Origin: Eubacteriales bacterium
Lineage (GTDB): Bacteria > Bacillota > Clostridia > Oscillospirales > CAG-272
Direction of reading: 5' to 3'
DNA length: 35,408 bases
Assembly (NCBI GenBank): GCA_045636245.1
Contig: JAZTXA010000149.1
Coordinates: 1 to 35,408 of the forward strand
Shown here: piece after piece, positions 385 to 14,697 of the stretch
Layout: the number at the start of each line of letters is the position of its first letter
Numbering within the stretch: the first letter of the stretch is position 1
The notes under the pieces: model-generated
The model's database searches: none
What the model saw: only the letters and a program-made list of their open reading frames with translations
What the model was told of the DNA's origin: nothing
Translations under genes and position numbers: made by a program

Positions 385-1766
385 TGGCAACCACCTCACT
401 ATGGGCGGTGAGAGGGACGATACGCGACGTAGTAGCTTACGTCAAAGACCCTAATAAGACCGCAAATCCCGATTATGATCTTAAAAACGTGTTGACCTAT
501 GCCGCAGATAACGACAAGACCGAAAAACAGTATTACGTTACGGGGCTGAACTGCTCACCGCATTTTGCCTATGAGCGTATGACGGCAACCAAGGAGCGAT
601 ACGGCAAGCGCGGAGGCATCGTCGGATATCACGGGTATCAGAGCTTCAAGCCGGGGGAGCTAACACCCGAGGAATGTCACAAGATCGGGGTGCTGACAGC
701 CAAGCGAATGTGGGGTGACCGCTTTGAGGTCATCGTGGCAACTCACGTCAAAGGCTCGTCGGCTTTGCATAACCATTTCGTTATCAATAGTGTATCCTTC
801 AAGGACGGCAAGAAGTACCGTTGGCAGAAAGATAGTTACCGACAGTTACGCCGAGTTTCGGACGAGCTTTGCCGTCAGCATCAATTATCCATCATCGAGA
901 ATCCAATGCCAAAGAAAGTGCCAAGGCAGATATGGATCGCGGAGAAACAAGGCAAGGTCACCCATGCATCTATTCTGCGCCACGATATCGACCGCGCCGT
1001 ACGGAGCAACATCAGTTTTAAGTATTTTCTTCAAGCCTTGGAATATCTCGGCTACGTTGTCGTGCGGAACGGTGACTATAAGCACATCTCGGTCATCACC
1101 GAGGGATGGAGCAAGCCAGTCCGTATTGATAGCTTGGGCGCTAATTACACCCTTGAAGTTATTGAACGACGAATCCGAGATAATCTTCACAAAGAACCCG
1201 TACCGCATATCCGCAAACCGCAAAGGCGTATAGCTTGTGAGCTTGAAAGACAGATGAAAGCGTTAGAAAGGTATTCCACTATTGAAATACTGTTTATGAT
1301 CTTCTTTGAGCTAATGGGGATTCCGTATGATGATCCATTCACCAAGGAACAAAGGATGCCGCCGAAATATGAGATTGCGTCACCGTATTTTGCGCAGGAA
1401 GCGATCAACAACGATCGTTATTGCCGAGAGATTCGCCTTATGAGCTGGTACGAGCTTCACACCACCGAGGACGTGACCTCATTCCGTGACAAGCGCAAAG
1501 CGGAACTGCAAAGTTTGGAGCGCGAGAGAAAGGCAGTCGATAATCGTCGCCGTCGCCTTACCGATCCCTACGAGAAACAGAAAAACAGCGCCGAGCGAAG
1601 CGCGATCACAAAGAAAATGACGAACGTCCGCAGGGAGATGAACCTTGCGGACGATATTTTATCCGATTCAATAAGACTTGCCAAAGCGATTGCCGCCGAA
1701 AAGGCTTGTGAGGAACGTCTTGTGCCGGATAAAACCAAACAAAAACACAAAGAACAGGAGAGATAA
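384..1766 (+). CDS. Relaxase/mobilization nuclease domain protein (MobA/VirD2-type)
   Basis: 460 aa. It has the histidine-triad motif THVKGSSALHNHFVINSVSF, an N-terminal Tyr candidate (VVAYVK) and a charged coiled-coil C-terminus. It is translationally coupled to the mobC-like gene. Confidence 0.9.
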   Translation: MATTSLWAVRGTIRDVVAYVKDPNKTANPDYDLKNVLTYAADNDKTEKQYYVTGLNCSPHFAYERMTATKERYGKRGGIVGYHGYQSFKPGELTPEECHKIGVLTAKRMWGDRFEVIVATHVKGSSALHNHFVINSVSFKDGKKYRWQKDSYRQLRRVSDELCRQHQLSIIENPMPKKVPRQIWIAEKQGKVTHASILRHDIDRAVRSNISFKYFLQALEYLGYVVVRNGDYKHISVITEGWSKPVRIDSLGANYTLEVIERRIRDNLHKEPVPHIRKPQRRIACELERQMKALERYSTIEILFMIFFELMGIPYDDPFTKEQRMPPKYEIASPYFAQEAINNDRYCREIRLMSWYELHTTEDVTSFRDKRKAELQSLERERKAVDNRRRRLTDPYEKQKNSAERSAITKKMTNVRREMNLADDILSDSIRLAKAIAAEKACEERLVPDKTKQKHKEQER

Positions 1767-1767
1767 A

Positions 1768-2649
1768 ATGTATAAGAAATTAAAAGAACAGATCACCGAA
1801 ACCACGCAGTATTATCGGCTGCAAAACGTACACCCAAGGGCAGAACAACCCTTCCAAGTCCGCGACGATAAGGAAATGGAACAGCTTGTGGAAAGCATTC
1901 GCATGAACGGAGTCCTCAACCCTTTGATCGTAACACCAAAGCGCGGCGGATATGAGATCGTGTCGGGACACCGCCGCTATGCCGCTTGTCAAAAGCTTGG
2001 CGTGGAGACCATTCCCGTTATCGTTCGTGACCTTACCCCCGATGAAGCGACCCTTTGTATGATCGATTCCAATCTGCATCGCGAGCATTTGTTGCCCTCG
2101 GAAAAAGCCTACGCTTACAAGGCGAAGATGGAGGTGCTGAAGCGCAAGGGACAGCGATACGGTCAAACCTCGTCGCAACCTGCGACAAAGTGGGATGCCG
2201 CTACCGAGATCGGCAAGGCGACCAACGAGAGCCGCGACCAAGTGTTCCGGTATATCCGCTTGACCAATCTCATAAAGCCGCTGATGGATATTGTGGATAG
2301 TGGACGAATCGCATTTACCCCCGCCGTGGAGCTTTCCTATCTGCCCCATGAGTTGCAGGACAAAATCGTGGAGATCTTTGAGAGAGACGAAGCCACGCCA
2401 TCCTATGCGCAGACAGTGAGATTCAGAAGGCTTCTCGGCGAGGGCAAGCTGACGGCGGATACCATTGAGGATATTATGGCAAAGCCGAAAGCCAATCAGA
2501 AAGAGACGGTCAAATTCAGCTACGAACGGATCGCCCGTTTCTTTCCTCCCGAGTATAGCACAAAACAGATGGAAGATGCAATTGTGCGGATTCTTGAAGA
2601 ACGCAGACGAGAGATCTCTCGCCGCCGCGATGATGCAGAAAGGGGGTGA
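1768..2649 (+). CDS. ParB-like N-terminal (ParB/Srx) domain protein
   Basis: Start taken at ATG 1768 (MYKKLKEQ), preceded by GGAGAGA. The motif LNPLIVTPKRGGYEIVSGHRRYAACQKLG matches the ParB N-terminal GxRR box. The longer track ORF from 1678 overlaps the relaxase. Confidence 0.85.
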   Translation: MYKKLKEQITETTQYYRLQNVHPRAEQPFQVRDDKEMEQLVESIRMNGVLNPLIVTPKRGGYEIVSGHRRYAACQKLGVETIPVIVRDLTPDEATLCMIDSNLHREHLLPSEKAYAYKAKMEVLKRKGQRYGQTSSQPATKWDAATEIGKATNESRDQVFRYIRLTNLIKPLMDIVDSGRIAFTPAVELSYLPHELQDKIVEIFERDEATPSYAQTVRFRRLLGEGKLTADTIEDIMAKPKANQKETVKFSYERIARFFPPEYSTKQMEDAIVRILEERRREISRRRDDAERG

Positions 2650-2653
2650 TTTA

Positions 2654-2923
2654 TTGGGAAAGATAAACAGATGGAAATGGTTTTTATGTATGGCGCGGTT
2701 TTGTCTTGATAACAAGGTGGGCGGCTATCGCTGTCGCTCCCAAGTCCCCGAGCACGAGATCTTGAAGATCGTGCGTATGTATGAGCCGATTATCACAGAG
2801 TTTTTCGACAACGAGGAAGAAATGGCGAAATTCCAAAAGTGGCGTGAGGAGCAGGAGGAAAAGGAGAGCATGGATAAGGAGGAGAAAGCAAAGAAGAAAG
2901 CGGGAGCTGCTAACGTAGCGTAA
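2654..2923 (+). CDS. Small Cys-containing protein with an acidic/lysine-rich tail; element-encoded, function unknown. The start is uncertain (TTG 2654 or ATG 2690).
   Basis: The frame stays open after the parB-like stop. AGGGGG at 2641-2646 could serve as RBS for TTG 2654. The sequence is MARFCLDNKVGGYRCRS followed by an EEQEEKE/KKK tail. A terminator follows directly. Confidence 0.45.
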   Translation: MGKINRWKWFLCMARFCLDNKVGGYRCRSQVPEHEILKIVRMYEPIITEFFDNEEEMAKFQKWREEQEEKESMDKEEKAKKKAGAANVA

Positions 2924-2928
2924 TAGAG

Positions 2929-2963
2929 AAAGCCTCGGCAGGGAGCTTCCTTGCCGAGGCTTT
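2929..2963. terminator. Bidirectional rho-independent terminator between the Mob module and the cargo gene
   Basis: AAAGCCTCGGCA ... TGCCGAGGCTTT is a 12-bp stem followed by TTATTATAAAT. It lies between the convergent stops at 2923 and 2987. Confidence 0.7.
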
Positions 2964-2986
2964 ATTATAAATAAATGTTAGATTTT

Positions 2987-4213
2987 TCAAAAAACAAAAT
3001 CCTTGAAGGAAGCAATTTCACGAAATTCTGCTGACTTTAGTCTCTGACACACTTCATTTGAAGTTATCATATGCAGATATGGATATAATAAGAAAAAGTA
3101 AGGGCGAAGAATATGTGCTTTCTTTTTCATGACTGATAGTTCTGGTAAATAGCGATCACAAATGGTGGTATAGTATCCTATTACGTATTCCTTTTTATCT
3201 TCAGAGAGCTTTATATCATAAGGGAACAATCTACAGTCAATTGGGCGTCCTTCATATATTTTACATCTTTGTTCGTCTAAATCAAAGAAATGACATTTTG
3301 TATACTCTAATGTATTGTTTTCTCCTTTTTTTTCGTCTCGCTTCATTTGACGTACAGCGCTATTGTCATACGGAGCGGACAAAGTTTTCGAGAAAGAGTT
3401 CTTTTCTGTTTTGTTAGACGGTAATTGCTTACGGATCAAATCAAGCTCACTGTTTAAGAATACTGGCATGTCAACATTTGGATTTGCACAGCAACAAACC
3501 TTGCGTTCGGTTGAACATTTTGTGCAAAAATCAAATGTTCCATTTAATAGATTTTTGTCCTCCCCCGCTACCCAAATATATGGACTAACTCTGATTTCAT
3601 CATCAACAAAAGCGGAAAGTTTGGAGAAAGAACAAAAACCACTTAAAATATCTCTATCAATCAGTTTTAAATTGATAGCTCCTCGTTCATCAACAGACTC
3701 ATTTTGAGAATAATATTCAGCAGTTAATACTTTGTTTGTATATTTTCCTTTGAGCGTATACGTATGAATTAAAAATTCATTCCCATCTGATCCTATTTCT
3801 CGCAGAGTTACAGTTCCTTCTATTTGTCCATTTTTTTGCTTGGTTATGACAATTTGTTCAGTTTTTAATTTATTATCTTCGGCAAAAAGTGAAGTATAAT
3901 TTTGCCCCAAAACAATATTGTCATTATTGGAAGAAGATGATGTCTCAGGAACTAAAGACTTATCGCTAACATTAATAGTTGTATGGTTAGTAGTATTGTT
4001 TATGGTATTATTAACATTACCTTTATTTTTTGAACTTTTAATTACATTTTTATTATGTGACGAATTGTTCATGTTCCCCTCCGTTCGTTTCTTTTTCTTT
4101 TCTTCAAGGACTCGCTTCAATTCAATATATGCTTTTATTAAGCCAAATATGGCAGTAGGGACACCAATTATAGAAATTATCAGTGTAATAATGATCTTAG
4201 TAGATTCGTCCAT
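2987..4213 (-). CDS. Membrane-tethered protein with a C-terminal YkgJ-type CxxCxxCC cysteine-cluster domain (UPF0153-like); AT-rich orphan cargo gene
   Basis: Start taken at ATG 4213 (MDESTK), preceded by GAGGTGAGG; the track start at 4228 is a GTG. Domains in order: a TM helix (IIITLIISIIGVPTAIFGLI) followed by KKKKR, an N/S/T-rich linker, a beta-rich middle region, then CTKCSTERKVCCC ... CHFFDLDEQRCKIYEGRPIDCRLFPYD. Sampled lines are about 25-33% GC. Confidence 0.8.
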   Translation of the reverse strand: MDESTKIIITLIISIIGVPTAIFGLIKAYIELKRVLEEKKKKRTEGNMNNSSHNKNVIKSSKNKGNVNNTINNTTNHTTINVSDKSLVPETSSSSNNDNIVLGQNYTSLFAEDNKLKTEQIVITKQKNGQIEGTVTLREIGSDGNEFLIHTYTLKGKYTNKVLTAEYYSQNESVDERGAINLKLIDRDILSGFCSFSKLSAFVDDEIRVSPYIWVAGEDKNLLNGTFDFCTKCSTERKVCCCANPNVDMPVFLNSELDLIRKQLPSNKTEKNSFSKTLSAPYDNSAVRQMKRDEKKGENNTLEYTKCHFFDLDEQRCKIYEGRPIDCRLFPYDIKLSEDKKEYVIGYYTTICDRYLPELSVMKKKAHILRPYFFLLYPYLHMITSNEVCQRLKSAEFREIASFKDFVF

Positions 4214-4302
4214 AACCTCACCTCGCACAAGTTGTCATTAATATTATAACACATTTTTGATAGCAAATCAATATATAAAGACATAAATACTTAAAATAAA
4301 AC

Positions 4303-4348
4303 AAATAATCCGAACGATTCTTCAAGTAAGAGAATGTTCGGATTATTT
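4303..4348 (-). terminator. Long hairpin immediately 3' of tRNA-Pro (probable tRNA terminator)
   Basis: AAATAATCCGAAC (4303-4315) pairs with GTTCGGATTATTT (4336-4348), with inner ATTCT/AGAAT pairing. On the minus strand it is followed by GTTTTATTTTAAG. Confidence 0.55.
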
Positions 4349-4353
4349 TCATG

Positions 4354-4430
4354 TGGTCGGAGTGACGGGATTCGAACACGCGACCTCTTGGTCCCGAACC
4401 AAGCGCTCTACCAAACTGAGCCACACCCCG
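4354..4430 (-). tRNA. tRNA-Pro (anticodon CGG), CCA encoded
   Basis: The reverse complement reads CGGGGTGTGGCTCAGTTTGGTAGAGCGCTTGGTTCGGGACCAAGAGGTCGCGTGTTCGAATCCCGTCACTCCGACCA. It has a 7-bp acceptor stem (one G-T pair), a CTTGG/CCAAG anticodon stem with loop TTCGGGA, and a GTTCGAATC T-loop. Confidence 0.9.
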
Positions 4431-4436
4431 AAATAT
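4411..4436. repeat. Direct repeat copy 1 (26 bp): tRNA-Pro nucleotides 1-20 plus 6 upstream nt
   Basis: CCAAACTGAGCCACACCCCGAAATAT is identical to 4614-4639. Confidence 0.9.
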
Positions 4437-4613
4437 GAAATTTTAAGACTTGTTGTTTTATGGAATTGATTTTTGCTTTGCGAGCACCTACGCGCTCTTC
4501 CTGTTGCAACTGTTGGCTCTGCTTTCGTTCGCAAGCTCACTCGGCAATCGCCAAGTTGCTGCCACTCAAAACACCTTGCTTCATCCGCCACAGGCGGCGC
4601 AAGGAGTTTTTCC

Positions 4614-4639
4614 CCAAACTGAGCCACACCCCGAAATAT
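4614..4639. repeat. Direct repeat copy 2 (26 bp): truncated tRNA-Pro 5' fragment
   Basis: Perfect copy of 4411-4436. Beyond the repeat, the tRNA-like sequence is replaced by unrelated GC-rich hairpin DNA. Confidence 0.9.
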
Positions 4640-4652
4640 TAACGCAAGGTAT

Positions 4653-4681
4653 AGTTTATCACAGTTTTGTTTTTTTGTCAA
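4653..4681 (-). promoter_or_regulatory. Sigma-A type promoter reading toward the truncated tRNA 5' fragment (probable ancestral tRNA-Pro promoter)
   Basis: The minus strand reads TTGACA, a 17-nt spacer, then TGaTAAACT (extended -10). The predicted start is about 10 nt upstream of the CGGGG of repeat copy 2. Confidence 0.55.
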
Positions 4682-4782
4682 TATAATTTCAGAATATTTT
4701 ATAAAGAAAACGGAAAATGCTTCGAGGGGTTGACTTACGATCATTATCGTGATAAAATACGAAAAAACGAAAGGTGTACCAT

Positions 4783-5991
4783 ATGAAAAAAACGGTTGCT
4801 TTATTGCTTGCTTTGATAACATCGTTTTCACTTTTTTCCTGCGGAAACGGCGAAGATACAACGGCGGAGGGCGTAACGGACGGTATTACCGTATCCAAAG
4901 ATACGGAAACACCCGCGGAAACAGCAGAGGAAACGGAGGCTGTGACAGAGGCTGAAACTGAAGCTTTGACAGATGCTGAAACAGAGCCCGAAATAGTAGA
5001 AGAACCCAAAAACTTTATGGTCGAAAGACATAATTTTGCTGACATTACCGATAAGGTGAAATTTCTCGGCAGAACCTATACAGAGGGTACCGGCGTTGTA
5101 ATGGATGCAAGTGCATCAGGGTTTGAGTTTTGCGGATATATGAAAGGCGCTGTACGTATTTCAATGACTTGCACTGAAATGTGTTATTTTACCGTTTACG
5201 TTGACGGTGAACGTACATCCTCGCGCTTCTTTATATCCGAAGGTACACACGAAATAACAGTTGTCACATTTACGGAATTCGGATTCCATACCGTGCGCGT
5301 TGTAAAACAAACTGAGCCGTCGCTGGCCCAGTGCACTTTAAATGTGCTCCAAACTGCTTGTATATTCAGCGAAAAGCCAGAAAATAAAGAAATTTACATT
5401 GAATTTATCGGAGACAGCATTTTATCCGGCTACGGCAACCTTTGCGACAACACCGCAACAAATGCGGGTAAGCCCAACAGACAGGATGCAACGCAGGCAT
5501 TTCCTTATCTGACAGCTGAATTGCTTGGTGCCGATTTATCTGTTATCAGCTGCAGCGGAATCGGACTTGTCAAGGGAGTTCACAGCTATAACGCAAAGGA
5601 TTTTTATTCCGCACGCTCTTATTATAAAGGCACAGAGCCTTACAGCTTCGACCGCATACCGAATGTTGTTGTTATCAACTTGGGTACAAACGATTCTGCA
5701 CTCGGTGCATCTGAAGCGGATTTCAAAAACGGTGTAAAAGCACTTGTTGAATATATTAGAGCATCATACAAAAAAGACGTTCCGATAATCTGGACATACA
5801 ATGCGATGAATGATGAGCGTACAGCGCCGTGGCTTGAAGCGCAGTTCGCAACTCTCGGCGGTGAGAGCGCAGGACTTCACCTCTTTAAGCTTGACAGAAA
5901 CACAGACGGCGGTGACTTCCACCCGTCGCTTGATGCGCACAAAGCCTACTCCGAAAAGCTTTCGGAGTTCATAGAAAATATTATTAAATAA
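4783..5991 (+). CDS. Lipoprotein, SGNH/GDSL hydrolase with a CE2-like N-terminal beta-sandwich (carbohydrate acetyl esterase-like)
   Basis: Start at ATG 4783 after GAAAGG. There is a signal peptide with a lipobox (SLFSC) and an acidic T/E/A-rich linker. Catalytic motifs are FIGDSILSGYGN (block I Ser), VVINLGTNDS and DFHPSLDAH (DxxH). Confidence 0.85.
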   Translation: MKKTVALLLALITSFSLFSCGNGEDTTAEGVTDGITVSKDTETPAETAEETEAVTEAETEALTDAETEPEIVEEPKNFMVERHNFADITDKVKFLGRTYTEGTGVVMDASASGFEFCGYMKGAVRISMTCTEMCYFTVYVDGERTSSRFFISEGTHEITVVTFTEFGFHTVRVVKQTEPSLAQCTLNVLQTACIFSEKPENKEIYIEFIGDSILSGYGNLCDNTATNAGKPNRQDATQAFPYLTAELLGADLSVISCSGIGLVKGVHSYNAKDFYSARSYYKGTEPYSFDRIPNVVVINLGTNDSALGASEADFKNGVKALVEYIRASYKKDVPIIWTYNAMNDERTAPWLEAQFATLGGESAGLHLFKLDRNTDGGDFHPSLDAHKAYSEKLSEFIENIIK

Positions 5992-5997
5992 CCAATT

Positions 5998-6025
5998 AAG
6001 GGCGGTTCATTCGAACCGCCCTTTC
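5998..6025. terminator. Bidirectional terminator between convergent genes
   Basis: GGGCGGTTC-attc-GAACCGCCC followed by TTTC. The hairpin overlaps the last codons of the HAD gene. Confidence 0.6.
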
Positions 6026-6642
6026 AATATTTCATAAAGCTCATCTGTTGTTTTGACTGTTTTATAAGCCGATTTTGTAATTTCAGCTTTATCGCCATAC
6101 CCCCACAAAACGGCAACAGTGGGAATATTATTTTCTTTTGCTCCGTTTATGTCTGTCATCGTATCGCCGACCATAACGGGGTCGTTTATATCAGGCACCG
6201 AATTCAAAAGGTGCTTTATTATATCGGCTTTTTCAATACGTGCGGGTGATGCGCCGCATATTTTTTCAAAATATTTTGCAAGTCCGAAATGTTCAAGTAT
6301 CTCGGCGGACACTTCCTCGGGCTTTGCTGTTGCGACAAACAAACGGTATCCGTCAGATTTCAGCCGCTTTAACAGCACCTGTATTCCGTCATACACGTAA
6401 TTTTCAAATTTGCCGACGGTGTTATACCGTGCCCTGTATACGGAAATTGCCTCGTCAATATGCGCCTTGTCTATACCGTGACTTAAAAAGCTGTCGCGAA
6501 GCGGCGGACCGACAAATGTCAGAAGCTCTTTTTCGCTCGGCGGTGTCATACTAAAATGCTCAAATGTGACAACGGCGCTTTTCATAATACCCTCACCCGA
6601 GCAGGTGAGCGTGCCGTCAAGATCAAATATAATACATTTCAT
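6007..6642 (-). CDS. HAD-IA family hydrolase (phosphoglycolate phosphatase / nucleotidase-like)
   Basis: The motifs are MKCIIFDLDGTL (DxDxT), a FVATAK block and VGDTMTDINGA (the Asp pair of motif IV). Confidence 0.85.
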   Translation of the reverse strand: MKCIIFDLDGTLTCSGEGIMKSAVVTFEHFSMTPPSEKELLTFVGPPLRDSFLSHGIDKAHIDEAISVYRARYNTVGKFENYVYDGIQVLLKRLKSDGYRLFVATAKPEEVSAEILEHFGLAKYFEKICGASPARIEKADIIKHLLNSVPDINDPVMVGDTMTDINGAKENNIPTVAVLWGYGDKAEITKSAYKTVKTTDELYEILKGRFE

Positions 6643-6644
6643 AA

Positions 6645-7817
6645 TCAGTAAAGCAAATATTTAGCGTTATCTTTTTCAAATTTTTCAGCCTGTGATGTCC
6701 ATTTGTCCATTATCTCGTCAACCGTCAGAACACCGTCACGCACGTCCGTGTTGCCCGTGGAAAGGTCAATATGATAGTGCGCGCCTTCCTTTGCGGGCTG
6801 TCTGAATGCAAAATCATCGGGGTACATTTTTTGGAGTGTACGTATGATCGACACACCGAGGCGTATCGGATCAAAAGTATTTCTGTCATAAATATGAAGA
6901 TTTGCTCCGCACACAAGCTCATTGGGGTATTTGGAAAATTTGGGAATGAACAATGCAGGGGAAAATTTAACACCTGCAAGACCGAGGCAGTTAAGCTCAT
7001 TTGTGAATTTTATCGGATCTATATACGGTGCGCCGACTGTTGTAAAAGGTGTTGTCGTTCCTCTGCCTTCCGATGCATTTGTGCCCGAAAGCATGCACGT
7101 GCCGTTGTAGGCGACTATCGAATCCATTGTCGGCAAATTAGGGCTCGGTTTTATGAACGGTACACCCGTGTCTTCAAAATACATATCACGGCGCCAATTC
7201 TGAAGCTCAACTATATGAAGCTCACAGCCGAGATGATACTCACCGTTATAAAATCTCGCAAGCTCACCGAGTGTCATTCCGTGACGAATCGGCACAGATG
7301 TCATGCCTATGTAAGAGGAATATTTCATATCAAGGCAATTACCCGCAACTTTACCGCTTATCGGGTTCGGTCGGTCAAGCAAAACAAGCGGTTTACCTAA
7401 CTTTGCGCACGTTTTCATGGCGCAGAACAATGTCGAAGCATACGTAAAATAACGTGAGCCGACGTCCTGCATATCAAAAACGATCATGTCTGTGTTTTCA
7501 ATTGCATCCGATGCATCCGCCCCCTCGGTTTCCTTGCCCGGCGTTTCAAGTAGGTCTTTATAAAGACTGTACATCGGTATTCCCGTGTATTTGTCAACAC
7601 CGCCGTCAACCTTTTCGCCGGGACCGAGCGCACCCCATACGCCGTGTTCGGGGGCAAAAAGTGCCGTTACATTGAACGATTCCTTCATAATGTCAACGGT
7701 GAAACGGTAGTCAGATGATATACCCGACACGGCTGAAATAAGTCCGATGCGTCCCGATTTCAGATATTTATATATATTTTCTTCCTTGACTCTGTCAATT
7801 CCGACAAGCGTTTTCAT
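6645..7817 (-). CDS. DUF1343 family protein (YbbC/NamZ-like exo-beta-N-acetylmuramidase)
   Basis: 390 aa. LFAPEHGVWG and VFDMQDVGSRYFTYASTL are characteristic of DUF1343. The RBS is GGAGGC. It lies 2 nt upstream of the HAD gene, so the two form an operon. Confidence 0.8.
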   Translation of the reverse strand: MKTLVGIDRVKEENIYKYLKSGRIGLISAVSGISSDYRFTVDIMKESFNVTALFAPEHGVWGALGPGEKVDGGVDKYTGIPMYSLYKDLLETPGKETEGADASDAIENTDMIVFDMQDVGSRYFTYASTLFCAMKTCAKLGKPLVLLDRPNPISGKVAGNCLDMKYSSYIGMTSVPIRHGMTLGELARFYNGEYHLGCELHIVELQNWRRDMYFEDTGVPFIKPSPNLPTMDSIVAYNGTCMLSGTNASEGRGTTTPFTTVGAPYIDPIKFTNELNCLGLAGVKFSPALFIPKFSKYPNELVCGANLHIYDRNTFDPIRLGVSIIRTLQKMYPDDFAFRQPAKEGAHYHIDLSTGNTDVRDGVLTVDEIMDKWTSQAEKFEKDNAKYLLY

Positions 7818-7919
7818 AAGCGCCTCCGCATTCGTTTTTTGTAATTATACCCCATATGCGCGTATTTGTCAACCGAATGATAAATTTACATTTTATTCAT
7901 TATTTTTCATATCAATATA

Positions 7920-7948
7920 TTGCAAAGCAGGGGATTATATAGTATAAT
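7920..7948 (+). promoter_or_regulatory. Sigma-A type promoter for yajC
   Basis: TTGCAA, a 17-nt spacer, then TATAAT. Confidence 0.55.
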
Positions 7949-7980
7949 AAAAAGGCTATTTAATACGAAATTGGAGTTGT

Positions 7981-8295
7981 ATGGTAATGTTTAACAATCT
8001 TCTTACAGCGACAGCGGGCAATTCGGGACTTTTTTCAATAGTTCTTATCGTCGTGATGTTCGTTGTTTTCTACTTCTTTATAATCCGTCCGCAGAAAAAG
8101 CAGGAAAAAGAAGTTGCAAAAATGCTTGATGAGCTGTCTGTCGGCGATGAAATAACGACAATAGGCGGAATTATCGGCGAAATTGTCAGCATAAAGGACG
8201 AAACGGTGCTTATCGAATCTTCCCGTGACAGAACAAGAATCCGTATTCTTAAAGGCTCTGTCAAGAGTGTTGACGTAAAAGCGTCCGAAAAATAA
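7981..8295 (+). CDS. yajC: Preprotein translocase subunit YajC
   Basis: An N-terminal TM helix is followed by FIIRPQKKQEKEVAKMLDELSVGDEITTIGGIIGEIVSI, the typical YajC core. The RBS is GGAG. Confidence 0.9.
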   Translation: MVMFNNLLTATAGNSGLFSIVLIVVMFVVFYFFIIRPQKKQEKEVAKMLDELSVGDEITTIGGIIGEIVSIKDETVLIESSRDRTRIRILKGSVKSVDVKASEK

Positions 8296-8350
8296 TCATA
8301 AAAAAATTCCTCACCGAATATAATTGAAATAAAAAATTTCGGAGGGGAAA

Positions 8351-8812
8351 ATGAACAGTAATGACCGTGAAAACGGAAAAACAGTCACCAAAATTCTGAA
8401 AAACGGACTGATATCCTTGGGTGTTTCTTATGCTGTGTGCGCCGCTTTGGCGGTGCTGTGTACCGGATTTGCCATGATGACGGAGCATCCGAGGAGCATG
8501 GACTTTCTCGGTAAAATTATATTTTTCGCAGGATGCGCCCTGTGCGGGTTCATTTGCGGGAAAAAGACGGGAAAAAGCGGTCTTTTATGCGGTCTTTTTT
8601 CAGGCGGTGTTTACTGTCTTTTGGCAGTTTTGCTGTCGGCGGCGGTGTGTACGGAGGATAAGGGGCAGAATCTTATGATACCTCTTTTCGGCACCTTGGT
8701 GTCGGTCGTAACCGCTTGTGTCGGATGCATGGGCAAAGCACCCAAAAATTCCGCACCGACGGGAATAAAACAGAAAAAAGCCGTCAGGTATACCGGCGGT
8801 TACAATAAATGA
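8351..8812 (+). CDS. Small four-TM membrane protein (resembles the TIGR04086 / YrzE-like family)
   Basis: Four hydrophobic segments. The GFICGKKTGKSGLLCGLFSGGVYCLL pattern resembles that family from memory. It sits between yajC and the SCIFF genes. Confidence 0.55.
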   Translation: MNSNDRENGKTVTKILKNGLISLGVSYAVCAALAVLCTGFAMMTEHPRSMDFLGKIIFFAGCALCGFICGKKTGKSGLLCGLFSGGVYCLLAVLLSAAVCTEDKGQNLMIPLFGTLVSVVTACVGCMGKAPKNSAPTGIKQKKAVRYTGGYNK

Positions 8813-8833
8813 AAACCGAAAGGATATATTAAA

Positions 8834-8992
8834 ATGAAAAACGTAAAAACACTTAACAAGACAACATACGCAAAGAACTCTAAAGGTGCAGGCTGCGGAG
8901 AATGCCAGGCTTCCTGCCAGTCCGCTTGCAAAACTTCTTGCACAGTAGCTAACCAGAAGTGCGAAAATAAGAGCAAGACAGAAAGCAAATAA
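8834..8992 (+). CDS. scfA: SCIFF (six cysteines in forty-five residues) ribosomal peptide precursor
   Basis: Read by hand; it is under 60 aa and absent from the ORF track. The translation is MKNVKTLNKTTYAKNSKGAGCGECQASCQSACKTSCTVANQKCENKSKTESK. The RBS is AAAGGA. Its TAA overlaps the scfB ATG (TAATG at 8990-8994). Confidence 0.9.
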   Translation: MKNVKTLNKTTYAKNSKGAGCGECQASCQSACKTSCTVANQKCENKSKTESK

Positions 8993-10347
8993 TGGTACAT
9001 ATTTTTTGCCAGAACGGTTATAAATTGGCATTGGACAGCGAATCCGGCGCTGTCCATATTTTAAGCGATATTGCATACGCTATCCTCGAAAAATTCCCCG
9101 AGGGACTTCCCGAAAGCTTTGACGATATGCCCGAATTTGAGGGTTTTTCGGCTGATGACACAAAGGAAGCGTATGGGGAATTACGCACACTTTGTGATGA
9201 AGGCACCTTGTTTTCAGAGCCTGTAATAACAAAGCCCTTGAAGTACACCCCCGGTGTTTCACCTATAAAGTCAATGTGTCTTCACATTTCGCACGACTGT
9301 AATATGAGATGCCGTTATTGCTTTGCTGACGGCGGTGACTATAAGCGCGCCAGAGGTCTTATGAGCTATGAGTGCGGGTGCCGTGCGATTGATTTCTTGC
9401 TTGAAAAATCAAAGGGAATCAAGAACTTGGAGCTTGACTTTTTCGGCGGTGAGCCGCTTTTGAACTTCGACGTTGTCAAAAAGCTCGTTGCTTACGGCAG
9501 AGAAAAAGAGAAGGAATACGGCAAAAATATCCGCTTTACAATAACTACAAACGGTGTTTTGCTTGATGATGAATCAATCGCTTTTATCAATGAGCATATG
9601 TCGAATGCAGTGCTTTCCATTGACGGCCGCCGTGAGGTGAACGACTATATGCGCCCGCTTGCCAACGGTAAGGGTACGTATGACAAAATTCTTCCGCTTT
9701 ACAAAAAGCTGACGAAGGACAGAACAATGGATTGGTACGTCAGAGGCACGTATACAAGACGTAACCTCGACTTTGTAAACGATGTGCTTTGCCTTGCAGA
9801 CGAGGGATTTGCAAATATATCGGTTGAGCCTGTTGTACTCCCCGACGAAAGTGAGTTTGCCATCCGCCGTGAGGATCTGCCTGTGATATATGCAGAGTAC
9901 GATAAGCTTGCAGATGAGATGATAAAGCGTGAAAAAGAGGGAAGAGGCTTTACATTCTTCCACTTTATGATCGACCTTGATGCAGGTCCCTGCGTTTATA
10001 AGCGCACAAAGGGTTGCGGATGCGGTGCGGAGTACGTTGCGGTAACACCCAACGGCGATATTTACCCCTGCCACCAGTTTGTTGAGCATACGGAAATGAA
10101 GCTCGGAAACATTTTCGACGATACATTCAATGGCGAAATATCTTCATCGTTTGCTGATTGCAATATTCTGACAAACGAAAAGTGTAAGGAATGTTGGGCA
10201 AGATATTTCTGCGGCGGCGGTTGCTGTGCGAATAATTACAATTTCCACAAGGACATAAAAGAGCCGTATGAAATAGCCTGCGACCTTGAGAAAAAGCGTG
10301 TCGAATGTGCTATTGCCATCAAAGCGGCGCTTGCCGATACAGAATAA
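8992..10347 (+). CDS. scfB: Radical SAM/SPASM thioether-forming SCIFF maturase
   Basis: It has the CxxxCxxC radical SAM motif (HDCNMRCRYC) and a C-terminal SPASM Cys cluster (CGCGAEY ... CKECWARYFCGGGCCANN). It lies immediately downstream of the SCIFF peptide. Confidence 0.92.
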   Translation: MVHIFCQNGYKLALDSESGAVHILSDIAYAILEKFPEGLPESFDDMPEFEGFSADDTKEAYGELRTLCDEGTLFSEPVITKPLKYTPGVSPIKSMCLHISHDCNMRCRYCFADGGDYKRARGLMSYECGCRAIDFLLEKSKGIKNLELDFFGGEPLLNFDVVKKLVAYGREKEKEYGKNIRFTITTNGVLLDDESIAFINEHMSNAVLSIDGRREVNDYMRPLANGKGTYDKILPLYKKLTKDRTMDWYVRGTYTRRNLDFVNDVLCLADEGFANISVEPVVLPDESEFAIRREDLPVIYAEYDKLADEMIKREKEGRGFTFFHFMIDLDAGPCVYKRTKGCGCGAEYVAVTPNGDIYPCHQFVEHTEMKLGNIFDDTFNGEISSSFADCNILTNEKCKECWARYFCGGGCCANNYNFHKDIKEPYEIACDLEKKRVECAIAIKAALADTE

Positions 10348-10370
10348 TTGATAAAACATCTCAAATATCA

Positions 10371-10403
10371 AAACGGTGGAAAGTATATTTCCGCCGTTTT
10401 TTA
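10371..10403 (+). terminator. Rho-independent terminator after scfB
   Basis: AACGGTGGAAA-gtata-TTTCCGCCGTT followed by TTTTTAT. Confidence 0.65.
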
Positions 10404-10483
10404 TGTTTGCTGTAACACTTTCACAAATTATGATGTTGAAACTTGTGTAATATCACAAATTTTGGCAAAAGTGTCTACGTTTG

Positions 10484-10512
10484 TTGATAGGCGAAAGAAT
10501 TTATGTTATATT
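10484..10512 (+). promoter_or_regulatory. Candidate promoter for the secreted protein gene
   Basis: TTGATA, a 17-nt spacer, then TGtTATATT (extended -10). Confidence 0.45.
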
Positions 10513-10629
10513 CTAATTGTAAAGAGCATTTGTTTATAAGTTTAAAGCATGATGGGAGTGATACAGATGGCAAGTTTATCCGATGAATGTGCATTTAAAA
10601 TCAGTTTAGAAACGAAAGGACTTAAAGCT

Positions 10630-11373
10630 ATGAAAAAAATAATATCATTAATTCTTTGCATCGCTCTGTTTTCGCCCTTATTCTTAATATCTGCAAATGC
10701 TGATATGGCAATAACAAAAAGTGAGGCGGCAGAGCTTATTGATGAAATGTACAAGTTTAAAAAGCATACCATTCATACAGATACCGGGGACGTTTTTTTA
10801 GGCAGTCTTCCTTCCACCCCGATAACCGATGAGGCTGTCTATGAAAGCCTGTGTGAAATATTTAACTACAAATTTGAAATAGAACTTTTCTCACTGCTTG
10901 ACGGTGAATACGGAAAACTTTCCTTCTGGCACGAGTACATAAAAAAATTTATGTCTGATGATTACGTTGAAAATAATCTGGATCTGCATCACGGACTTAT
11001 TGAGCTTGATGATAAGGTATACACTATCGACCCTGCGTGCTATCTGGGAGCACCCGATTTTCCTCGTCTGTGCGGGTGTGACCTTCCGCTTGAAGACCAT
11101 ATAACATTGATAGATAACGATACTGTTTTGCTTGAAGCGCATTTTGACGGATATGAGCCGACAAAATACAGAATAGATTTTGAATATACGGAAAACGGCT
11201 GGCGTATCTCGGGCGGTGCAGGCGTGGAGCGTTTTATGGCAGGCTTTGTAAAATACGAAGTGCAAAACCCCGAAACGGGAGACGATGCGGTAATAATTAC
11301 CGTTTGTATGACAATGTTGGTTCTCGGTATTGCATACGGCGTAAACAAACGCAGATTTGCAAAGTGTGAGTGA
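10630..11373 (+). CDS. Secreted protein with a C-terminal sortase-like sorting signal (NPETG + TM + KRR); function unknown
   Basis: Start at ATG 10630 (MKKIISLILCIALFSPLFLISANA signal peptide) after AAAGGA. The C-terminus reads NPETGDDAVIITVCMTMLVLGIAYGVNKRRFAKCE. Confidence 0.7.
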   Translation: MKKIISLILCIALFSPLFLISANADMAITKSEAAELIDEMYKFKKHTIHTDTGDVFLGSLPSTPITDEAVYESLCEIFNYKFEIELFSLLDGEYGKLSFWHEYIKKFMSDDYVENNLDLHHGLIELDDKVYTIDPACYLGAPDFPRLCGCDLPLEDHITLIDNDTVLLEAHFDGYEPTKYRIDFEYTENGWRISGGAGVERFMAGFVKYEVQNPETGDDAVIITVCMTMLVLGIAYGVNKRRFAKCE

Positions 11374-11399
11374 TTTACGTATAAATCCGAATATGGAGA

Positions 11400-11475
11400 G
11401 CGCCCCGTCCGCACCCCCACAGTTTGTGCAACAAACTGCCTGCGGACAAGGGGCGCAGATTTTCGCAGGAAATCT
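11400..11475. repeat. GC-rich structured intergenic repeat, family A, copy 1
   Basis: The sequence is GCGCCCCGTCCGCACCCCCACAGTTTGtgcaacAAACTGCCTGCGGACAAGGGGCGCAGATTTTCgcaGGAAATCT. It forms nested hairpins and is homologous in order and motifs to 22150-22247. Confidence 0.6.
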
Positions 11476-11496
11476 ATTGATGGCTTAAATATAAGA

Positions 11497-11530
11497 AAGC
11501 AGGTGGGAAAATACCACCTGCTTCATTTTT
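11497..11530. terminator. Bidirectional terminator between the secreted-protein gene and thrS
   Basis: AAGCAGGTGG-gaaaata-CCACCTGCTT, with a T-run on the plus side and TCTTAT on the minus side. Confidence 0.6.
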
Positions 11531-13464
11531 TATTTTATAATCTTATTGTTATTTTCTTCAAGCGCGCGTGCCATGAATTCGGAAACGGTCATAACACCGA
11601 TGTCGCCTGTTCCTCTTTCACGTACTGCAACGGAATCGGACGTCATTTCCTTTTCACCGATAACGAGCATATAGGGTACTTTGTCAAGCTGTGCGGCTCT
11701 TATCTTGTAACCGATCTTCTCGTTTCTTGTGTCGCACTTAACACGAAGACCTGCTTTTGCAAGTGTCTTTCTTACGTTTTCAGCATATTCTGCCTGATCG
11801 TCGCCGATGGGGAGGATTCTTATCTGCTCGGGGGACAGCCAAAGCGGAAGTGCGCCCGCGTATTTTTCAAGCAAGTAAGCGATAGTTCTTTCGTAGCATC
11901 CGAGCGATGTTCTGTGAATGATGTAAGGATACTGCTGCTGACCGTTTGAATCTGTATACGTCATGTTGAACTGACGTGCAAGCATAAGGTCAACCTGAAT
12001 CGTTACAACAGTGTCTTCCTTACCGTGTACGTTCTTCATCTGAACGTCGAGCTTAGGGCCATAGAATGCCGCTTCGCCGACAGCCTCGGTAAACTCAAGA
12101 CCGATGTTGTTGAGGATATCACGCATAAGTCCTTCTGCCATATCCCATTCCTCGGGTGTGCCGATGTATTTTTCCGTATCGGCGGGATCCCACTTGGAAA
12201 GACGGTATGAAAGGTCGCCGATAAGACCGACATCTGTCATAACCTCTTTAAGAAGCTTTACGCAGTTCTTGAATTCTTCTTCAAGCTGGTCGGGACGGAT
12301 AACGAGGTGTCCTTCAGAAATTGTGAACTGGCGTACACGGATAAGACCGTGCATTTCACCCGAATCCTCGTTACGGAAAAGTGTTGATGTTTCGGCATAT
12401 CTTATGGGAAGATCCTTATATGAATGCTTTTCGGCAAGGTATACCTGATACTGGAAGGGGCAAGTCATGGGACGGAGCGCAAGCACCTCACCTTCAGCCT
12501 CGGGATCACCGAGGACGAACATACCGTCACGGTAGTGATCCCAGTGACCTGAGATCTTGTAAAGGTCGGATTTAGCCATAAGGGGCGTTTTTGTCATAAC
12601 ATAGCCGTATTCGTTTTCTTCCTTGTCCTGAACGTAGCGGTTAAGGATCTGGAAAAGCTTTGTGCCCTTGGGCATAAGGCAGGGAAGTCCCTGACCGATG
12701 TATTCGCTTGTTGTGAAATATCCAAGCTCTCTGCCTATCTTGTTATGGTCACGCTTCTTTGCTTCTTCAACTGCGGCAAGATAATCATTAAGCTCCTGCT
12801 TGGAGGGGAATGCAACGCCGTTGATACGCTGAAGCATCTTCTTTGATCTGTCGTTGTCATGGTATGCACCCGTGCACTGAATGAGCTTTACAGCCTTCAC
12901 AGCACCTGTTGAGAAAAGGTGGGGACCTGTACACATATCAACGAATTCGCCCTGACGGTAGAATGAAAGGATAGCATCGTCGGGCAGTGAGTTGATCTTT
13001 TCAACCTTGTAGGGCTGATCCTTCATAAGCTCAAGCGCGTCGGTGCGGGATAAAACGGAACGCTCGATCTTAAGGTTTTCCTTGATGATCTTGTTCATTT
13101 CCGCTTCGATCTGCTTCAAAATATCGGGGGAGAACGATGTTTCACAGTCGATATCGTAGAAAAATCCGTTGTCAGTTGACGGGCCCTTGTCAAGCTTTGC
13201 GTCGGGGAAAAGACGAAGCACAGCCTGTGCAAGAATGTGCGATGCCGTGTGACGGAAAATGAGCTTTCCTTCACGGTCAGCAAATGTCAGAAGCTGTATT
13301 TCGCAGTCACCGCTTATCGTCTGTGTAAGCTCCGCAGGCTCACCGTTTAACAAAGCGGCGAAGACCGTTTTGTCAATAAGCTCCGATGCTTTTGCGGCAT
13401 CGTAGATCGTTACGGGTGCGTCTGCTGAAAACGTCTTCCCGTTTGAAAATTTTACATTAACCAT
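11530..13464 (-). CDS. thrS: Threonine--tRNA ligase
   Basis: 644 aa, with the N-terminal TGS domain, the editing domain (HTASHILAQAV), a class II core and the anticodon-binding domain. It lies downstream of a Thr-type T-box leader. Confidence 0.95.
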   Translation of the reverse strand: MVNVKFSNGKTFSADAPVTIYDAAKASELIDKTVFAALLNGEPAELTQTISGDCEIQLLTFADREGKLIFRHTASHILAQAVLRLFPDAKLDKGPSTDNGFFYDIDCETSFSPDILKQIEAEMNKIIKENLKIERSVLSRTDALELMKDQPYKVEKINSLPDDAILSFYRQGEFVDMCTGPHLFSTGAVKAVKLIQCTGAYHDNDRSKKMLQRINGVAFPSKQELNDYLAAVEEAKKRDHNKIGRELGYFTTSEYIGQGLPCLMPKGTKLFQILNRYVQDKEENEYGYVMTKTPLMAKSDLYKISGHWDHYRDGMFVLGDPEAEGEVLALRPMTCPFQYQVYLAEKHSYKDLPIRYAETSTLFRNEDSGEMHGLIRVRQFTISEGHLVIRPDQLEEEFKNCVKLLKEVMTDVGLIGDLSYRLSKWDPADTEKYIGTPEEWDMAEGLMRDILNNIGLEFTEAVGEAAFYGPKLDVQMKNVHGKEDTVVTIQVDLMLARQFNMTYTDSNGQQQYPYIIHRTSLGCYERTIAYLLEKYAGALPLWLSPEQIRILPIGDDQAEYAENVRKTLAKAGLRVKCDTRNEKIGYKIRAAQLDKVPYMLVIGEKEMTSDSVAVRERGTGDIGVMTVSEFMARALEENNNKIIK

Positions 13465-13479
13465 TTTAATGTATCTCCT

Positions 13480-14037
13480 TTAATAATTTAATCCGTATAA
13501 TGTATATGTATCGGCAAATACCGAAGACTCAAATTCAGCCTTTGTATATTCGCACAAATAATAACCGTATGTTGTTGTAAGGTATACCTTTACCGTGTCG
13601 TTATTTTTCGGCACGTCAAATCGCATATTGCTTATGATCTTTTCAAATTTGTCAAGCTCACCGTATGACAATTCTATGGCTTCCTCATTTTTTGCAGTAT
13701 CGGCTGTCAAATGTTTTTTTTCACCGTTTGAAAAATATGCAACCACGTCTTTTCTTTCTGTCTCAAATGAATAAAAGTATGCAGGGCGGGACAGATTTTC
13801 GTAATCCGCAAGCTCAACGGTGATGCCGAGTATTTTTATAGGCGATTTTTCGCCGTCTTCGTTCGTTTCCTCGACGAGCCCATGGTCAAACTCGATTATT
13901 GAGCTTGTTTTGATAAGATTATATACTCTTGAAGGCGAAGAGGGAAGCGGGTATAAAAACTGTACGATCAACAGCCCTGCAATCAGCGCAAGCGTTATTA
14001 TACCGCATATTATAAGCGGTATTTTTGCATTTTTCAT
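13480..14037 (-). CDS. Membrane-anchored protein of unknown function; first gene of the T-box/thrS operon
   Basis: Start taken at ATG 14037 (MKNAKIPLIICGIITLALIAGLLIV) after AAGGAG. The track ORF start at 14157 would run through the T-box terminator. Its stop overlaps the thrS RBS. Confidence 0.65.
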   Translation of the reverse strand: MKNAKIPLIICGIITLALIAGLLIVQFLYPLPSSPSRVYNLIKTSSIIEFDHGLVEETNEDGEKSPIKILGITVELADYENLSRPAYFYSFETERKDVVAYFSNGEKKHLTADTAKNEEAIELSYGELDKFEKIISNMRFDVPKNNDTVKVYLTTTYGYYLCEYTKAEFESSVFADTYTLYGLNY

Positions 14038-14050
14038 TGAAAACTCCTTA

Positions 14051-14265
14051 AAAAATAAAACGCCCCGAGGAAAAAACTCCCTCGGGGCGGTAATTCCGCG
14101 GTTCCACCCGAACTTGTAACTTGAAACCCCTTTAACGGAGGCAAACCGTGCCGTCATTTCCTACGGCATTACAGCAGGCGGTGTCCCTTTGTTACATACC
14201 AAGAGCCTTGTTTCAGCAAACCAAGACTTCTCTGTGCGAGGATATAACGGGCTTCCTGCCGATAT
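14051..14265 (-). promoter_or_regulatory. T-box riboswitch leader (threonine-type)
   Basis: Four elements are visible on the minus strand:
- AGAGA bulge;
- F-box CCGTTA (plus-strand 14133-14138);
- T-box AAGTTCGGGTGGAACCGCGG (14096-14115);
- terminator CGCCCCGAGG ... CCTCGGGGCG followed by a U-run (14051-14089).
The candidate specifier is ACC (14180-14182), or alternatively GAA-ACA-A at 14209-14211. Both are Thr codons. Confidence 0.8.
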
Positions 14266-14271
14266 TTTTGT

Positions 14272-14697
14272 TTATTTTTTCTTTTTTAAATTGTACTGTG
14301 AACGGGGGTTGACGATCTCACGCCAATCAAGGTCGCCTCTTTCAAGTGCGCATATAAGCACCTCGGCTGTGGCAATATTTGTTGCAACGGGCACGTTGTG
14401 CAAGTCGCACATGCGTATTAAGTCGAATGCTTCATCTGTATTTGCCTCAGGCTTTGTATCTCTGAAGTAAAGAAGTACGTCTATCTCGTTGTATGCTATG
14501 CGCGAAGCGATCTGCTGTTCGCCTCCGTGTTGCCCCGAAAGCAACCTTTCGATTTCCAGCCCGGTAGCATCCGAGATGTATTTTCCCGTAATGCCTGTGG
14601 CACAAAGATTGTGTTTACTTAAAATACCGCAGTAAGCGATACATAGCTGTGCCATCAATTCTTTTTTTCTGTCATGAGCGATAATTGCTATTTCCAT
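14272..14697 (-). CDS. mgsA: Methylglyoxal synthase
   Basis: 141 aa. IAIIAHDRKKE ... LCATGITG ... GGEQQI matches the MGS-like domain signature. Confidence 0.88.
   Translation of the reverse strand: MEIAIIAHDRKKELMAQLCIAYCGILSKHNLCATGITGKYISDATGLEIERLLSGQHGGEQQIASRIAYNEIDVLLYFRDTKPEANTDEAFDLIRMCDLHNVPVATNIATAEVLICALERGDLDWREIVNPRSQYNLKKKK

Follow-up and report, generated by a model that had tools for sequence, protein, structure and literature searches.

A membrane-anchored barrel and YkgJ-type protein encoded beside tRNA-Pro: a candidate modular defence cargo of mobile elements

What does a lone, AT-rich gene do between a mobilisation module and a tRNA-Pro gene? The question is raised by contig JAZTXA010000149.1 of assembly GCA_045636245.1, from a Eubacteriales bacterium of the Oscillospirales (CAG-272), whose 35,408 nucleotides were analysed as a whole and are referred to here as the window. 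The gene lies on the minus strand at 2987..4213 and encodes 408 amino acids (aa) from an ATG start, as read from the list of open reading frames (ORFs) with translations and from homologs. A first-pass annotation, made from the sequence alone, described it as orphan cargo encoding a membrane-tethered protein with a YkgJ-type cysteine cluster, and guessed at a role in defence, exclusion or addiction. That guess is strengthened by the genomic contexts of homologs, swaps of effector domains, split operons and the lack of a partner gene. We put the probability at about one half that the gene encodes a stand-alone, abortive-infection-type sensor-effector, a cargo gene lying at the margins of integrative and conjugative elements (ICEs). 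The following paragraphs set out the protein, its relatives and their surroundings, and weigh this proposal against its alternatives.

The protein begins with a transmembrane (TM) helix (residues ~6-30, 4124..4198, minus strand; Kyte-Doolittle maximum 2.52), directly followed by the positive patch KKKKR (ELKRVLEEKKKKR). Among 105 relatives, the 15 residues after the helix hold a mean of 4.9 Lys and Arg, versus 0.7 before it; consequently, the topology is N-out/C-in and the bulk of the protein cytoplasmic, as had been proposed from the window gene alone. A linker rich in Asn, Ser, Thr and Lys follows (residues ~31-104, 3902..4123, minus strand; alignment A1 and composition). Its low complexity had been recognised earlier, whereas its length is about 75 aa (N17 K10 S10 T7), not about 60, and both length and sequence vary among homologs. 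Residues ~105-216 (3566..3901, minus strand) had been described as beta-rich and without a recognisable motif. No Pfam family covers this region, in agreement with that description, and AlphaFold2 and Foldseek now identify it as a predicted 8-stranded up-and-down beta-barrel of the avidin/lipocalin/nitrobindin-like type, with the conserved motifs YTSLFAE, DERGxINLK, SGFCSFSK and SPYVW in alignments. In the PDB, the barrel best matches fluorescence-activating barrels of designed origin, along with avidins, lipocalins, nitrobindin and GID4 (Foldseek E ~1e-3, target-normalised TM-score 0.65-0.77). All are ligand- or peptide-binding folds, and the predicted barrel is thus likely of a ligand-binding type.

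The remainder of the protein (residues ~225-408, 2990..3541, minus strand) is a YkgJ/CxxCxxCC-type domain, assigned from Pfam PF03692, invariant Cys columns and the model. Eight cysteines (C230, C233, C241, C242, C307, C317, C327 and C352) show complete or near-complete conservation in alignments A1 and A2 and in the distant subfamily of alignment A6. Their spacing is Cx2Cx6-7CC, not Cx2Cx2CC, and the YkgJ-family pattern is present as CxxC...CC followed by C...C.IY..RP.DC..FP.D. Relatives score as high as 36.8-38 bits against PF03692, and many homologs carry a precomputed match to it. Judged by the Pfam threshold and the 8-Cys pattern, the protein is a member of the CxxCxxCC/YkgJ superfamily, as the earlier annotation had proposed. 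Residues 95-408 were modelled from a 79-sequence alignment as one compact unit (AlphaFold2; mean predicted local distance difference test score, pLDDT, 89.9; predicted template-modelling score 0.89), in which the barrel is confidently predicted to pack against the YkgJ-type domain as one module.

Beyond the barrel, comparison with known structures and families yielded little. The C-terminal domain alone (model pLDDT 86.8) has no known fold relative in the PDB (best Foldseek E 1.8), and the YkgJ/CxxCxxCC family as a whole has no solved structure there that a sequence profile or fold search could find. Sequence searches of the PDB with the single protein and with a profile found no relative, and the whole model matched only generic beta-barrels in the PDB and BFVD (Foldseek). 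No NCBIfam family rose above noise for the 408-aa protein, and PHROGs gave a single weak, partial match to a family of unknown function (E 0.004). No full-length match to a characterised enzyme was obtained; the Pfam match is partial. The structural comparison suggested by the first-pass annotation has therefore given the barrel fold relatives and the C-terminal domain none.

More informative than the membrane tether itself is that, as read from the homologous proteins (P numbers below) and loci (L numbers), the barrel and cysteine domain form a fixed module whose N-terminus is interchangeable at a single junction. This junction lies just before the conserved strand I.GEW.S.F.E / YTSLFAE. In most members, including the window gene, the N-terminus is one TM helix plus linker, and in P0114 and P0117 it consists of several TM helices. 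In P0109 and P0110 it is a calcineurin-like metallophosphoesterase (Pfam Metallophos, E 7e-15 in P0110) with apparently intact DxH, GD and GNHD motifs, in P0132 a TIR domain (TIR_2, E 2.7e-7), and in P0122 a DUF4062 domain (E 1.2e-14). Four proteins (P0125, P0130, P0131 and P0135) have no N-terminal domain. DUF4062 is reported to be a TIR-like NADase immune effector placed at the N-terminus of modular anti-phage proteins (bioRxiv 10.64898/2026.09.04.749371, 10.64898/2026.05.01.722283); these 2026 preprints make no mention of a cysteine-cluster or barrel partner. The joining of a constant module to alternative known effector domains at one junction is the arrangement seen in modular sensor-effector defence proteins.

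The same parts also occur as separate genes. At L064, a gene for a 376-aa TIR_2 protein (E 1.6e-22) precedes that of the N-terminus-less P0135 by 73 nt, in the same orientation; P0135 and the TIR fusion P0132 share 62% identity. P0135 is followed by an ORF of 297 aa, which has no Pfam match but an N-terminus that, by eye only, resembles SIR2, and the stretch 1393-4620 of this locus may be a three-gene system. At L062 (6001-7473), a TM+barrel protein of 150 aa is followed after 10 nt by a stand-alone YkgJ protein of 167 aa, and a second TM+barrel protein of 151 aa completes the operon, which adjoins a large serine recombinase and a primase-like zinc-finger protein. Its gene content makes this operon the fused gene in split form. 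The barrel part of the profile additionally matches some ten stand-alone TM+barrel proteins, 130-195 aa in length.

The cysteine domain by itself suggests another account of the protein. The characterised relative FliB carries a CX4CX3CC motif that binds an O2-sensitive [4Fe-4S] cluster needed for lysine methylation dependent on S-adenosylmethionine (SAM), and is a membrane-associated cytosolic oligomer (PMC8598068). The window protein would then be a membrane-anchored, SAM-dependent Fe-S enzyme of the FliB type, with a protein, lipid or small-molecule substrate held by the barrel, a TM helix that merely localises it, and a non-immune benefit to the element. Its 8 conserved Cys, as in FliB, a barrel fold typical for small-molecule binders and the existence of soluble, N-terminus-less versions in housekeeping surroundings agree with such an enzyme. 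A localising helix, however, leaves both its replacement by TIR, DUF4062 or Metallophos domains and the split TIR operon unexplained; moreover, no substrate or partner gene is conserved, no FliB or other NCBIfam model matched, and the motif is Cx2Cx6-7CC in mid-protein versus CX4CX3CC at the FliB N-terminus. We consider such an enzyme unlikely. Membership of the FliB family proper was ruled out by the missing NCBIfam match and by the differences in motif spacing and position.

The family is small. Among 5.8 billion clusters, 115 (clustered at 90% identity) were recovered with the full architecture, at identities of 35-99%, nearly all from gut and rumen metagenomes and a few of them named 'YkgJ family cysteine cluster protein'. 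The gene is thus no orphan in the sense of lacking relatives; the term holds in that no operon partner is conserved (14 loci). A profile of the barrel and Cys domains gave 418 matches at E<=1e-3 in 1.84 billion representative proteins, 29 of which span the whole module (E<=1e-30). Relatives with barrel and YkgJ domain occur in about 16 of 185,579 species representative genomes, and carriers include Acutalibacteraceae, Oscillospiraceae, Lachnospiraceae, Ruminiclostridium, and metagenome-assembled genomes (MAGs) of Desantisbacteria and Planctomycetales. The GC content of homologs is 0.27-0.38 irrespective of that of the host flanks (0.30-0.61). The presence in viral genomes expected of a phage-encoded gene (prophage moron) is not seen: no relative was found in 2.9 million IMG/VR contigs, and the PHROGs match is weak (E 0.004).

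Soluble relatives of ~291 aa without an N-terminal domain were found at L082, L083, L084 and L107, with a gene GC of 0.20-0.24 and flanks of ~0.29. Their housekeeping neighbours are ssb/rpsR, rplM/rpsI and ymdB/spoVS (L083, L084 and L107). One 318-aa homolog, P0112, has its C-terminal half after the CCC motif replaced by the end of a ribosomal protein (PF00828); a chimera produced by assembly or gene calling, or else an insertion that truncates the gene, is the probable cause.

An ordinary cellular sensor of redox state or metals, or a regulator (for example an anti-sigma-like factor), that lies beside mobile DNA by chance would suit the housekeeping setting of the soluble subfamily, as well as the small sigma-70 region-4 genes present among the neighbours at L054 and L056. 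It would leave unaccounted for the sporadic distribution, the lack of conserved synteny, a composition foreign to the host in all cases, the occurrence of a near-identical cassette in unrelated contexts (see below) and the fusions to immune effector domains. We hold this to be very improbable. The first-pass annotation had treated its gene as accessory; in the main family this view stands, with a sporadic distribution and no synteny, whereas the soluble subfamily lies amid housekeeping genes.

The neighbourhoods of homologs, which the same annotation had proposed to collect, comprise ICE edges, integrase islets, tRNA genes and defence islands. At the ICE ends of L004-7, the homolog stands beside genes for ParB_N, DUF6017, MT-A70, DUF3801, a coupling protein and TrbL. 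Directly after a MobL relaxase and coupling protein at an ICE end, L014-16 carry the TM variant and L059-61 the DUF4062 variant, so that one ICE slot accommodates both; at L014, an ArdA anti-restriction gene lies on the same ICE arm. Islets and smaller elements are represented by L003 (tRNA-Arg, homolog, small ORF and integrase, with AbiE 9 kb off) and by L054, an integrative element with excisionase and integrase by tRNA-Val. The homolog of L022 adjoins tRNA-Ser, and that of L011 lies just outside a prophage lysis cassette. Direct repeats around the integrase islets of L003, L022 and L054 are only short and probably due to chance.

Defence genes recur in these surroundings. L001 is a defence-island setting with RloB and AAA_21, DUF2971, NYN and RNase III; an AAA_13 gene is near the homolog of L053; and at L056 the homolog is directly upstream of Thoeris ThsB_TIR and ThsA_Macro, with TnpV, RloB and AAA_21 also present. 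A genome scan placed a defence-associated reverse transcriptase (DRT; RT_UG31) and HATPase_c_3 near the homolog of L017. The AAA_21 and RloB pair recurs in two otherwise different islands (L001 7368-9311 and L056 16114-17990). Counted without a background rate, about 10 of the 12 Pfam-annotated contexts, the window included, have mobile-element genes within 10 kb, and 5 of the 12 have recognised defence genes within that distance, the DRT of L017 being a sixth case. No Pfam family is common to more than 4 of the 121 neighbouring proteins of 14 genome loci, and hence no partner gene is conserved. By these contexts, the gene is a single, partner-less, AT-rich mobile cargo that often travels beside defence genes.

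Two alternatives take the mobile setting at face value and assign the gene a different task. Anti-defence genes abound in the leading regions of conjugative elements, and the gene may belong to this class, being expressed early in a new host to neutralise its immunity or to help the transferred element settle. It adjoins relaxase or coupling-protein genes in the window, L014 and L059, shares an ICE arm with ArdA at L014, and has a strong promoter of its own (predicted). However, homologs are also found in integrase islets that are not conjugative, as neighbours of Thoeris and DRT genes and by a prophage lysis cassette, the TIR and DUF4062 NADase fusions mark host-killing effectors rather than known anti-defence proteins, and the window gene converges on the Mob genes and shares no operon with them. 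An anti-defence or establishment function is accordingly given little credence.

Passive exclusion of superinfecting phages or related elements, in which a membrane-tethered cytoplasmic domain stops DNA entry without killing the cell, is in our view likewise rather improbable. An N-terminal membrane anchor is what such a protein would need, and positions at the extreme ICE edge and by the prophage lysis cassette are typical of exclusion genes. The soluble TIR, DUF4062, Metallophos and N-terminus-less variants, in contrast, could not act at the membrane, the protein bulk is cytoplasmic and not surface-exposed, and a passive block leaves the conserved, predicted 8-Cys metal domain unexplained.

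What the alternatives account for least well is the exchange of effectors, together with the split TIR operon. Under the favoured sensor-effector reading, the barrel and Cys module would be a sensor or switch, loaded with metal, probably an Fe-S cluster by analogy with FliB and possibly Zn. Its cue would be phage infection or incoming foreign DNA, sensed by way of a small molecule that occupies the barrel, through a foreign protein, or as a redox or Fe-S perturbation or damage at the cluster. Activation would lead the protein to oligomerise. In the window variant, the N-terminal helices would thereupon come together within the membrane, which would be depolarised or made permeable, halting the infected cell; in the sister variants, the same switch would drive NAD+ hydrolysis (TIR, DUF4062) or a phosphoesterase.

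A more specific form of this reading is offered tentatively, as one that we doubt more than we trust. Here, the barrel and YkgJ module would be a new kind of infection sensor, the first immune role for the widespread but uncharacterised UPF0153/YkgJ fold, with an Fe-S cluster on the 8 Cys and a signal passed in cis to the fused effector. The cluster would signal a change induced by the phage (redox, iron or SAM-related), or would make a small product bound by the calycin-like barrel, and the effector would be a helix that disrupts the membrane, a NADase of the TIR or DUF4062 kind, or a phosphoesterase. The two-gene forms, TM-barrel with YkgJ and TIR with the module, would represent an ancestral pair of enzyme and receptor.

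Several points weigh against the sensor-effector reading. What suggests a defence role is association and the logic of the domains. The variants with TIR, DUF4062 or Metallophos amount to one or two clusters each, and one TM helix, attached by an Asn-rich tether, may do no more than anchor the protein, without being an effector. At L008-10, the homolog (10001-11230; GC 0.38, flanks ~0.60) sits between melibiase and ParA/BacA genes; within 10 kb there is neither a mobile-element gene such as an integrase or relaxase nor an adjacent gene for defence, a PemK toxin being ~6 kb off. The soluble subfamily of L083, L084 and L107 lies amid housekeeping and ribosomal-protein genes in three different places, which is at odds with a purely mobile-element distribution. 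Scanning the 2.9 million viral contigs of IMG/VR with the family alignment returned no relative. The PF03692 match of the window protein (residues 241-339, E 5e-5) exceeds the 23-bit cut-off by a small margin, at 24.3 bits. Finally, no PADLOC-DB v2.0.0 family matched the 408-aa protein at E<=1, consistent with the earlier statement that it could be assigned to no described system.

As the first-pass annotation had it, the gene is enclosed by a mobilisation module and tRNA-Pro. To the left, Pfam and NCBIfam identify an RHH/NikA-like protein (118-384), a MobA/VirD2 relaxase (384-1766) and a ParB_N protein (1765-2649), all on the plus strand. Beside them lies a 76-aa ORF without a Pfam match (2693-2920). 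To the right, tRNA-Pro (CGG) occupies 4354..4430 on the minus strand (ARAGORN; Rfam 59 bits). Directly 3' of it, a hairpin followed by a T-run (4307..4344, minus strand), read by eye, is likely the tRNA terminator; its long loop left it unflagged by the terminator scan. A second, GC-rich hairpin (2932..2960), also read by eye, separates the gene from the convergent Mob module.

Comparison of the window with the fetched loci (blastn) revealed a 1439-bp segment, 2961..4399, that is common to L001 and L002 and 96.6% identical. It contains the 3' 46 nt of tRNA-Pro and the likely terminator hairpin, together with the promoter and the gene up to 26 nt past its stop, and it ends just short of the GC-rich hairpin. 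The flanks are unrelated between the window and L001/L002, with no other identity there. At L001 (~9812-9860), only a 3' fragment of tRNA-Pro, without the 5' half, lies directly upstream of the 99%-identical homolog. No tRNA was called at L001, and the T-arm of the fragment is unlike that of the window and yet self-complementary; the fragment looks like an attachment-site remnant from the tRNA-Pro of another host. In both places, therefore, the gene adjoins a tRNA-Pro-derived sequence of the attachment-site type, at the extreme edge of integrated DNA. As judged from these alignments, the cassette has moved between unrelated contexts.

The gene may be part of the Mob element or an older, separate insertion. 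Its GC content at third codon positions (GC3) is unlike that of both neighbours, the Mob module runs past the left end of the window and the other end of its element lies beyond, and no integrase is visible in the window. An operon with the Mob genes was ruled out, because the genes converge and their GC3 differs (0.27 vs 0.6). Right of tRNA-Pro, the sequence is ordinary chromosome, with genes for ThrRS, ParA, YidC, Jag, MgsA, catalase and others. Like L008-10, this chromosome has melibiase (18711-20558) and ParA (14738-15535) genes a few kb apart.

The upstream side of tRNA-Pro carries a repeat of its own. A 29-nt direct repeat, 97% identical, occurs at 4411-4439 and 4614-4642, 203 nt apart, its unit being the first 20 nt of the tRNA plus 9 nt upstream. 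The upstream copy (4614-4642) is thus a 5' stub of the tRNA, and it is preceded by a promoter-like TTGACA-17-TAAACT at 4681-4653. The repeat may be a scar of insertion or excision, or a partial duplication. Neither the 174 nt between the copies (no unusual folding energy) nor the 203-nt region upstream of tRNA-Pro (folding energy unremarkable, z = -1.05) has an Rfam match. An exact-match metagenome scan with a 24-mer from the insert upstream of the tRNA, intended to find an empty site or related strains, found none.

The gene appears equipped for expression on its own. A ribosome-binding site, GAGGTGAGG (4216..4224, minus strand), read from the sequence, lies 2 nt 5' of the ATG, bearing out the strong site noted earlier. 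An alternative in-frame GTG at 4228, upstream of the ATG, would give 413 aa (+5 residues). Further upstream is a putative sigma-70 promoter, TTGATT-17 nt-TATAAT with a TG before the -10 (extended -10; 4243..4271, minus strand), identified by consensus match only (10/12 positions). Both the promoter and the ribosome-binding site of the gene are thus predicted.

Composition sets the gene apart from everything around it, even the adjacent Mob genes, as had been estimated earlier from sampled lines. Its GC of 0.327 compares with 0.496 at positions 1-2986 and 0.44 at 4431-14431, and is the minimum among all 1227-nt windows of the 35-kb stretch (mean 0.437, standard deviation 0.034). GC3 is 0.267 in the gene, 0.43-0.55 in chromosomal genes and 0.57-0.63 in Mob genes, so that three compositional classes adjoin within the window. 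The Asn/Lys-rich linker was ruled out as the sole cause of the AT bias, because residues 105-408 alone have a GC3 of 0.259. Between the window gene and the L001 copy, 25 codon differences are synonymous and 5 non-synonymous. The resulting ratio of non-synonymous to synonymous change (pN/pS) of ~0.05 indicates that the gene is under strong purifying selection.

If the sensor-effector reading is true, these data describe a single-gene defence family from gut Clostridia, a source under-represented in screens based on E. coli and Bacillus, and provide a biological role for the YkgJ/CxxCxxCC domain, which is common in bacterial genomes and understood only for FliB. The natural series of effectors (TM, TIR, DUF4062 and phosphoesterase) on one sensor would make the question of the trigger experimentally tractable, because NADase read-outs are easy. 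Its location at the outermost ends of ICEs and tRNA islets is relevant to the question of how immunity is carried by mobile elements.

How, then, does the protein compare with known systems? With the YkgJ/CxxCxxCC family (PF03692, formerly UPF0153, including E. coli YkgJ) it shares the Pfam threshold match and the 8 Cys. Typical members in the same search are stand-alone, soluble and 150-200 aa long, whereas the window protein adds a barrel and a membrane anchor, and the membrane-tethered fusion is as unusual as had been supposed. We know of no YkgJ-family member besides FliB with an established function, and the full-text literature on PF03692, CxxCxxCC, UPF0153 and YkgJ consists of the FliB paper and incidental mentions, none on defence. 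FliB of Salmonella resembles the window protein in its related Cys-rich motif, its 8 conserved Cys and its cytoplasmic site at the membrane. Given its [4Fe-4S] cluster, an Fe-S cluster would be the default expectation for the window protein. The two differ in that no profile links them (NCBIfam), the motif lies at residue 230 and not at the N-terminus, its spacing is different, and the window protein has no flagellar context; furthermore, neither a barrel nor an N-terminal effector swap has been reported for FliB.

For the way in which the TM variant could work, Cap15 is the best analogy. It combines TM helices with a ligand-sensing beta-barrel, and ligand-triggered oligomerisation damages the membrane and kills the cell (PMC10419184). 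In the window protein, a small cytoplasmic beta-barrel is predicted behind an N-terminal TM segment of one helix, and the present family also has stand-alone TM+barrel relatives of ~150 aa. The barrel of the present family, however, comes with a Cys-cluster domain, in the same or in a separate protein, that Cap15 lacks, and no cyclase or other partner gene is conserved. No Cap15 structure was among the best 50 Foldseek matches of the model, PADLOC gave no match to the cyclic oligonucleotide-based antiphage signalling system (CBASS), and no CD-NTase or cyclase was found among the listed neighbour families of 14 loci or in 11 annotated contexts.

Type II Thoeris (ThsB TIR with ThsA TM-Macro) shares the logic of a TM-plus-ligand-domain effector, and homologs stand beside ThsB/ThsA at L056 and after a TIR gene at L064. 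The association is confined to these two loci, the module has neither Macro nor SLOG, and most homologs have no TIR gene nearby. As a general explanation, a CBASS or Thoeris effector was ruled out because no partner gene is conserved. A parallel in design exists with Avs/NLR-like proteins, the NIR/DUF4062 systems (Vulcan, Swarozyc and Evangelion), TIR-STING and TM-STING, all of which follow the same logic of a constant sensor and a swapped N-terminal effector. Their constant part is a STAND NTPase, repeats, STING or SAVED, whereas that of the present family is the barrel with the YkgJ domain. Against this background, the family is best described as a candidate defence family, in which a predicted new sensor module would be built into a modular sensor-effector logic that is already known.

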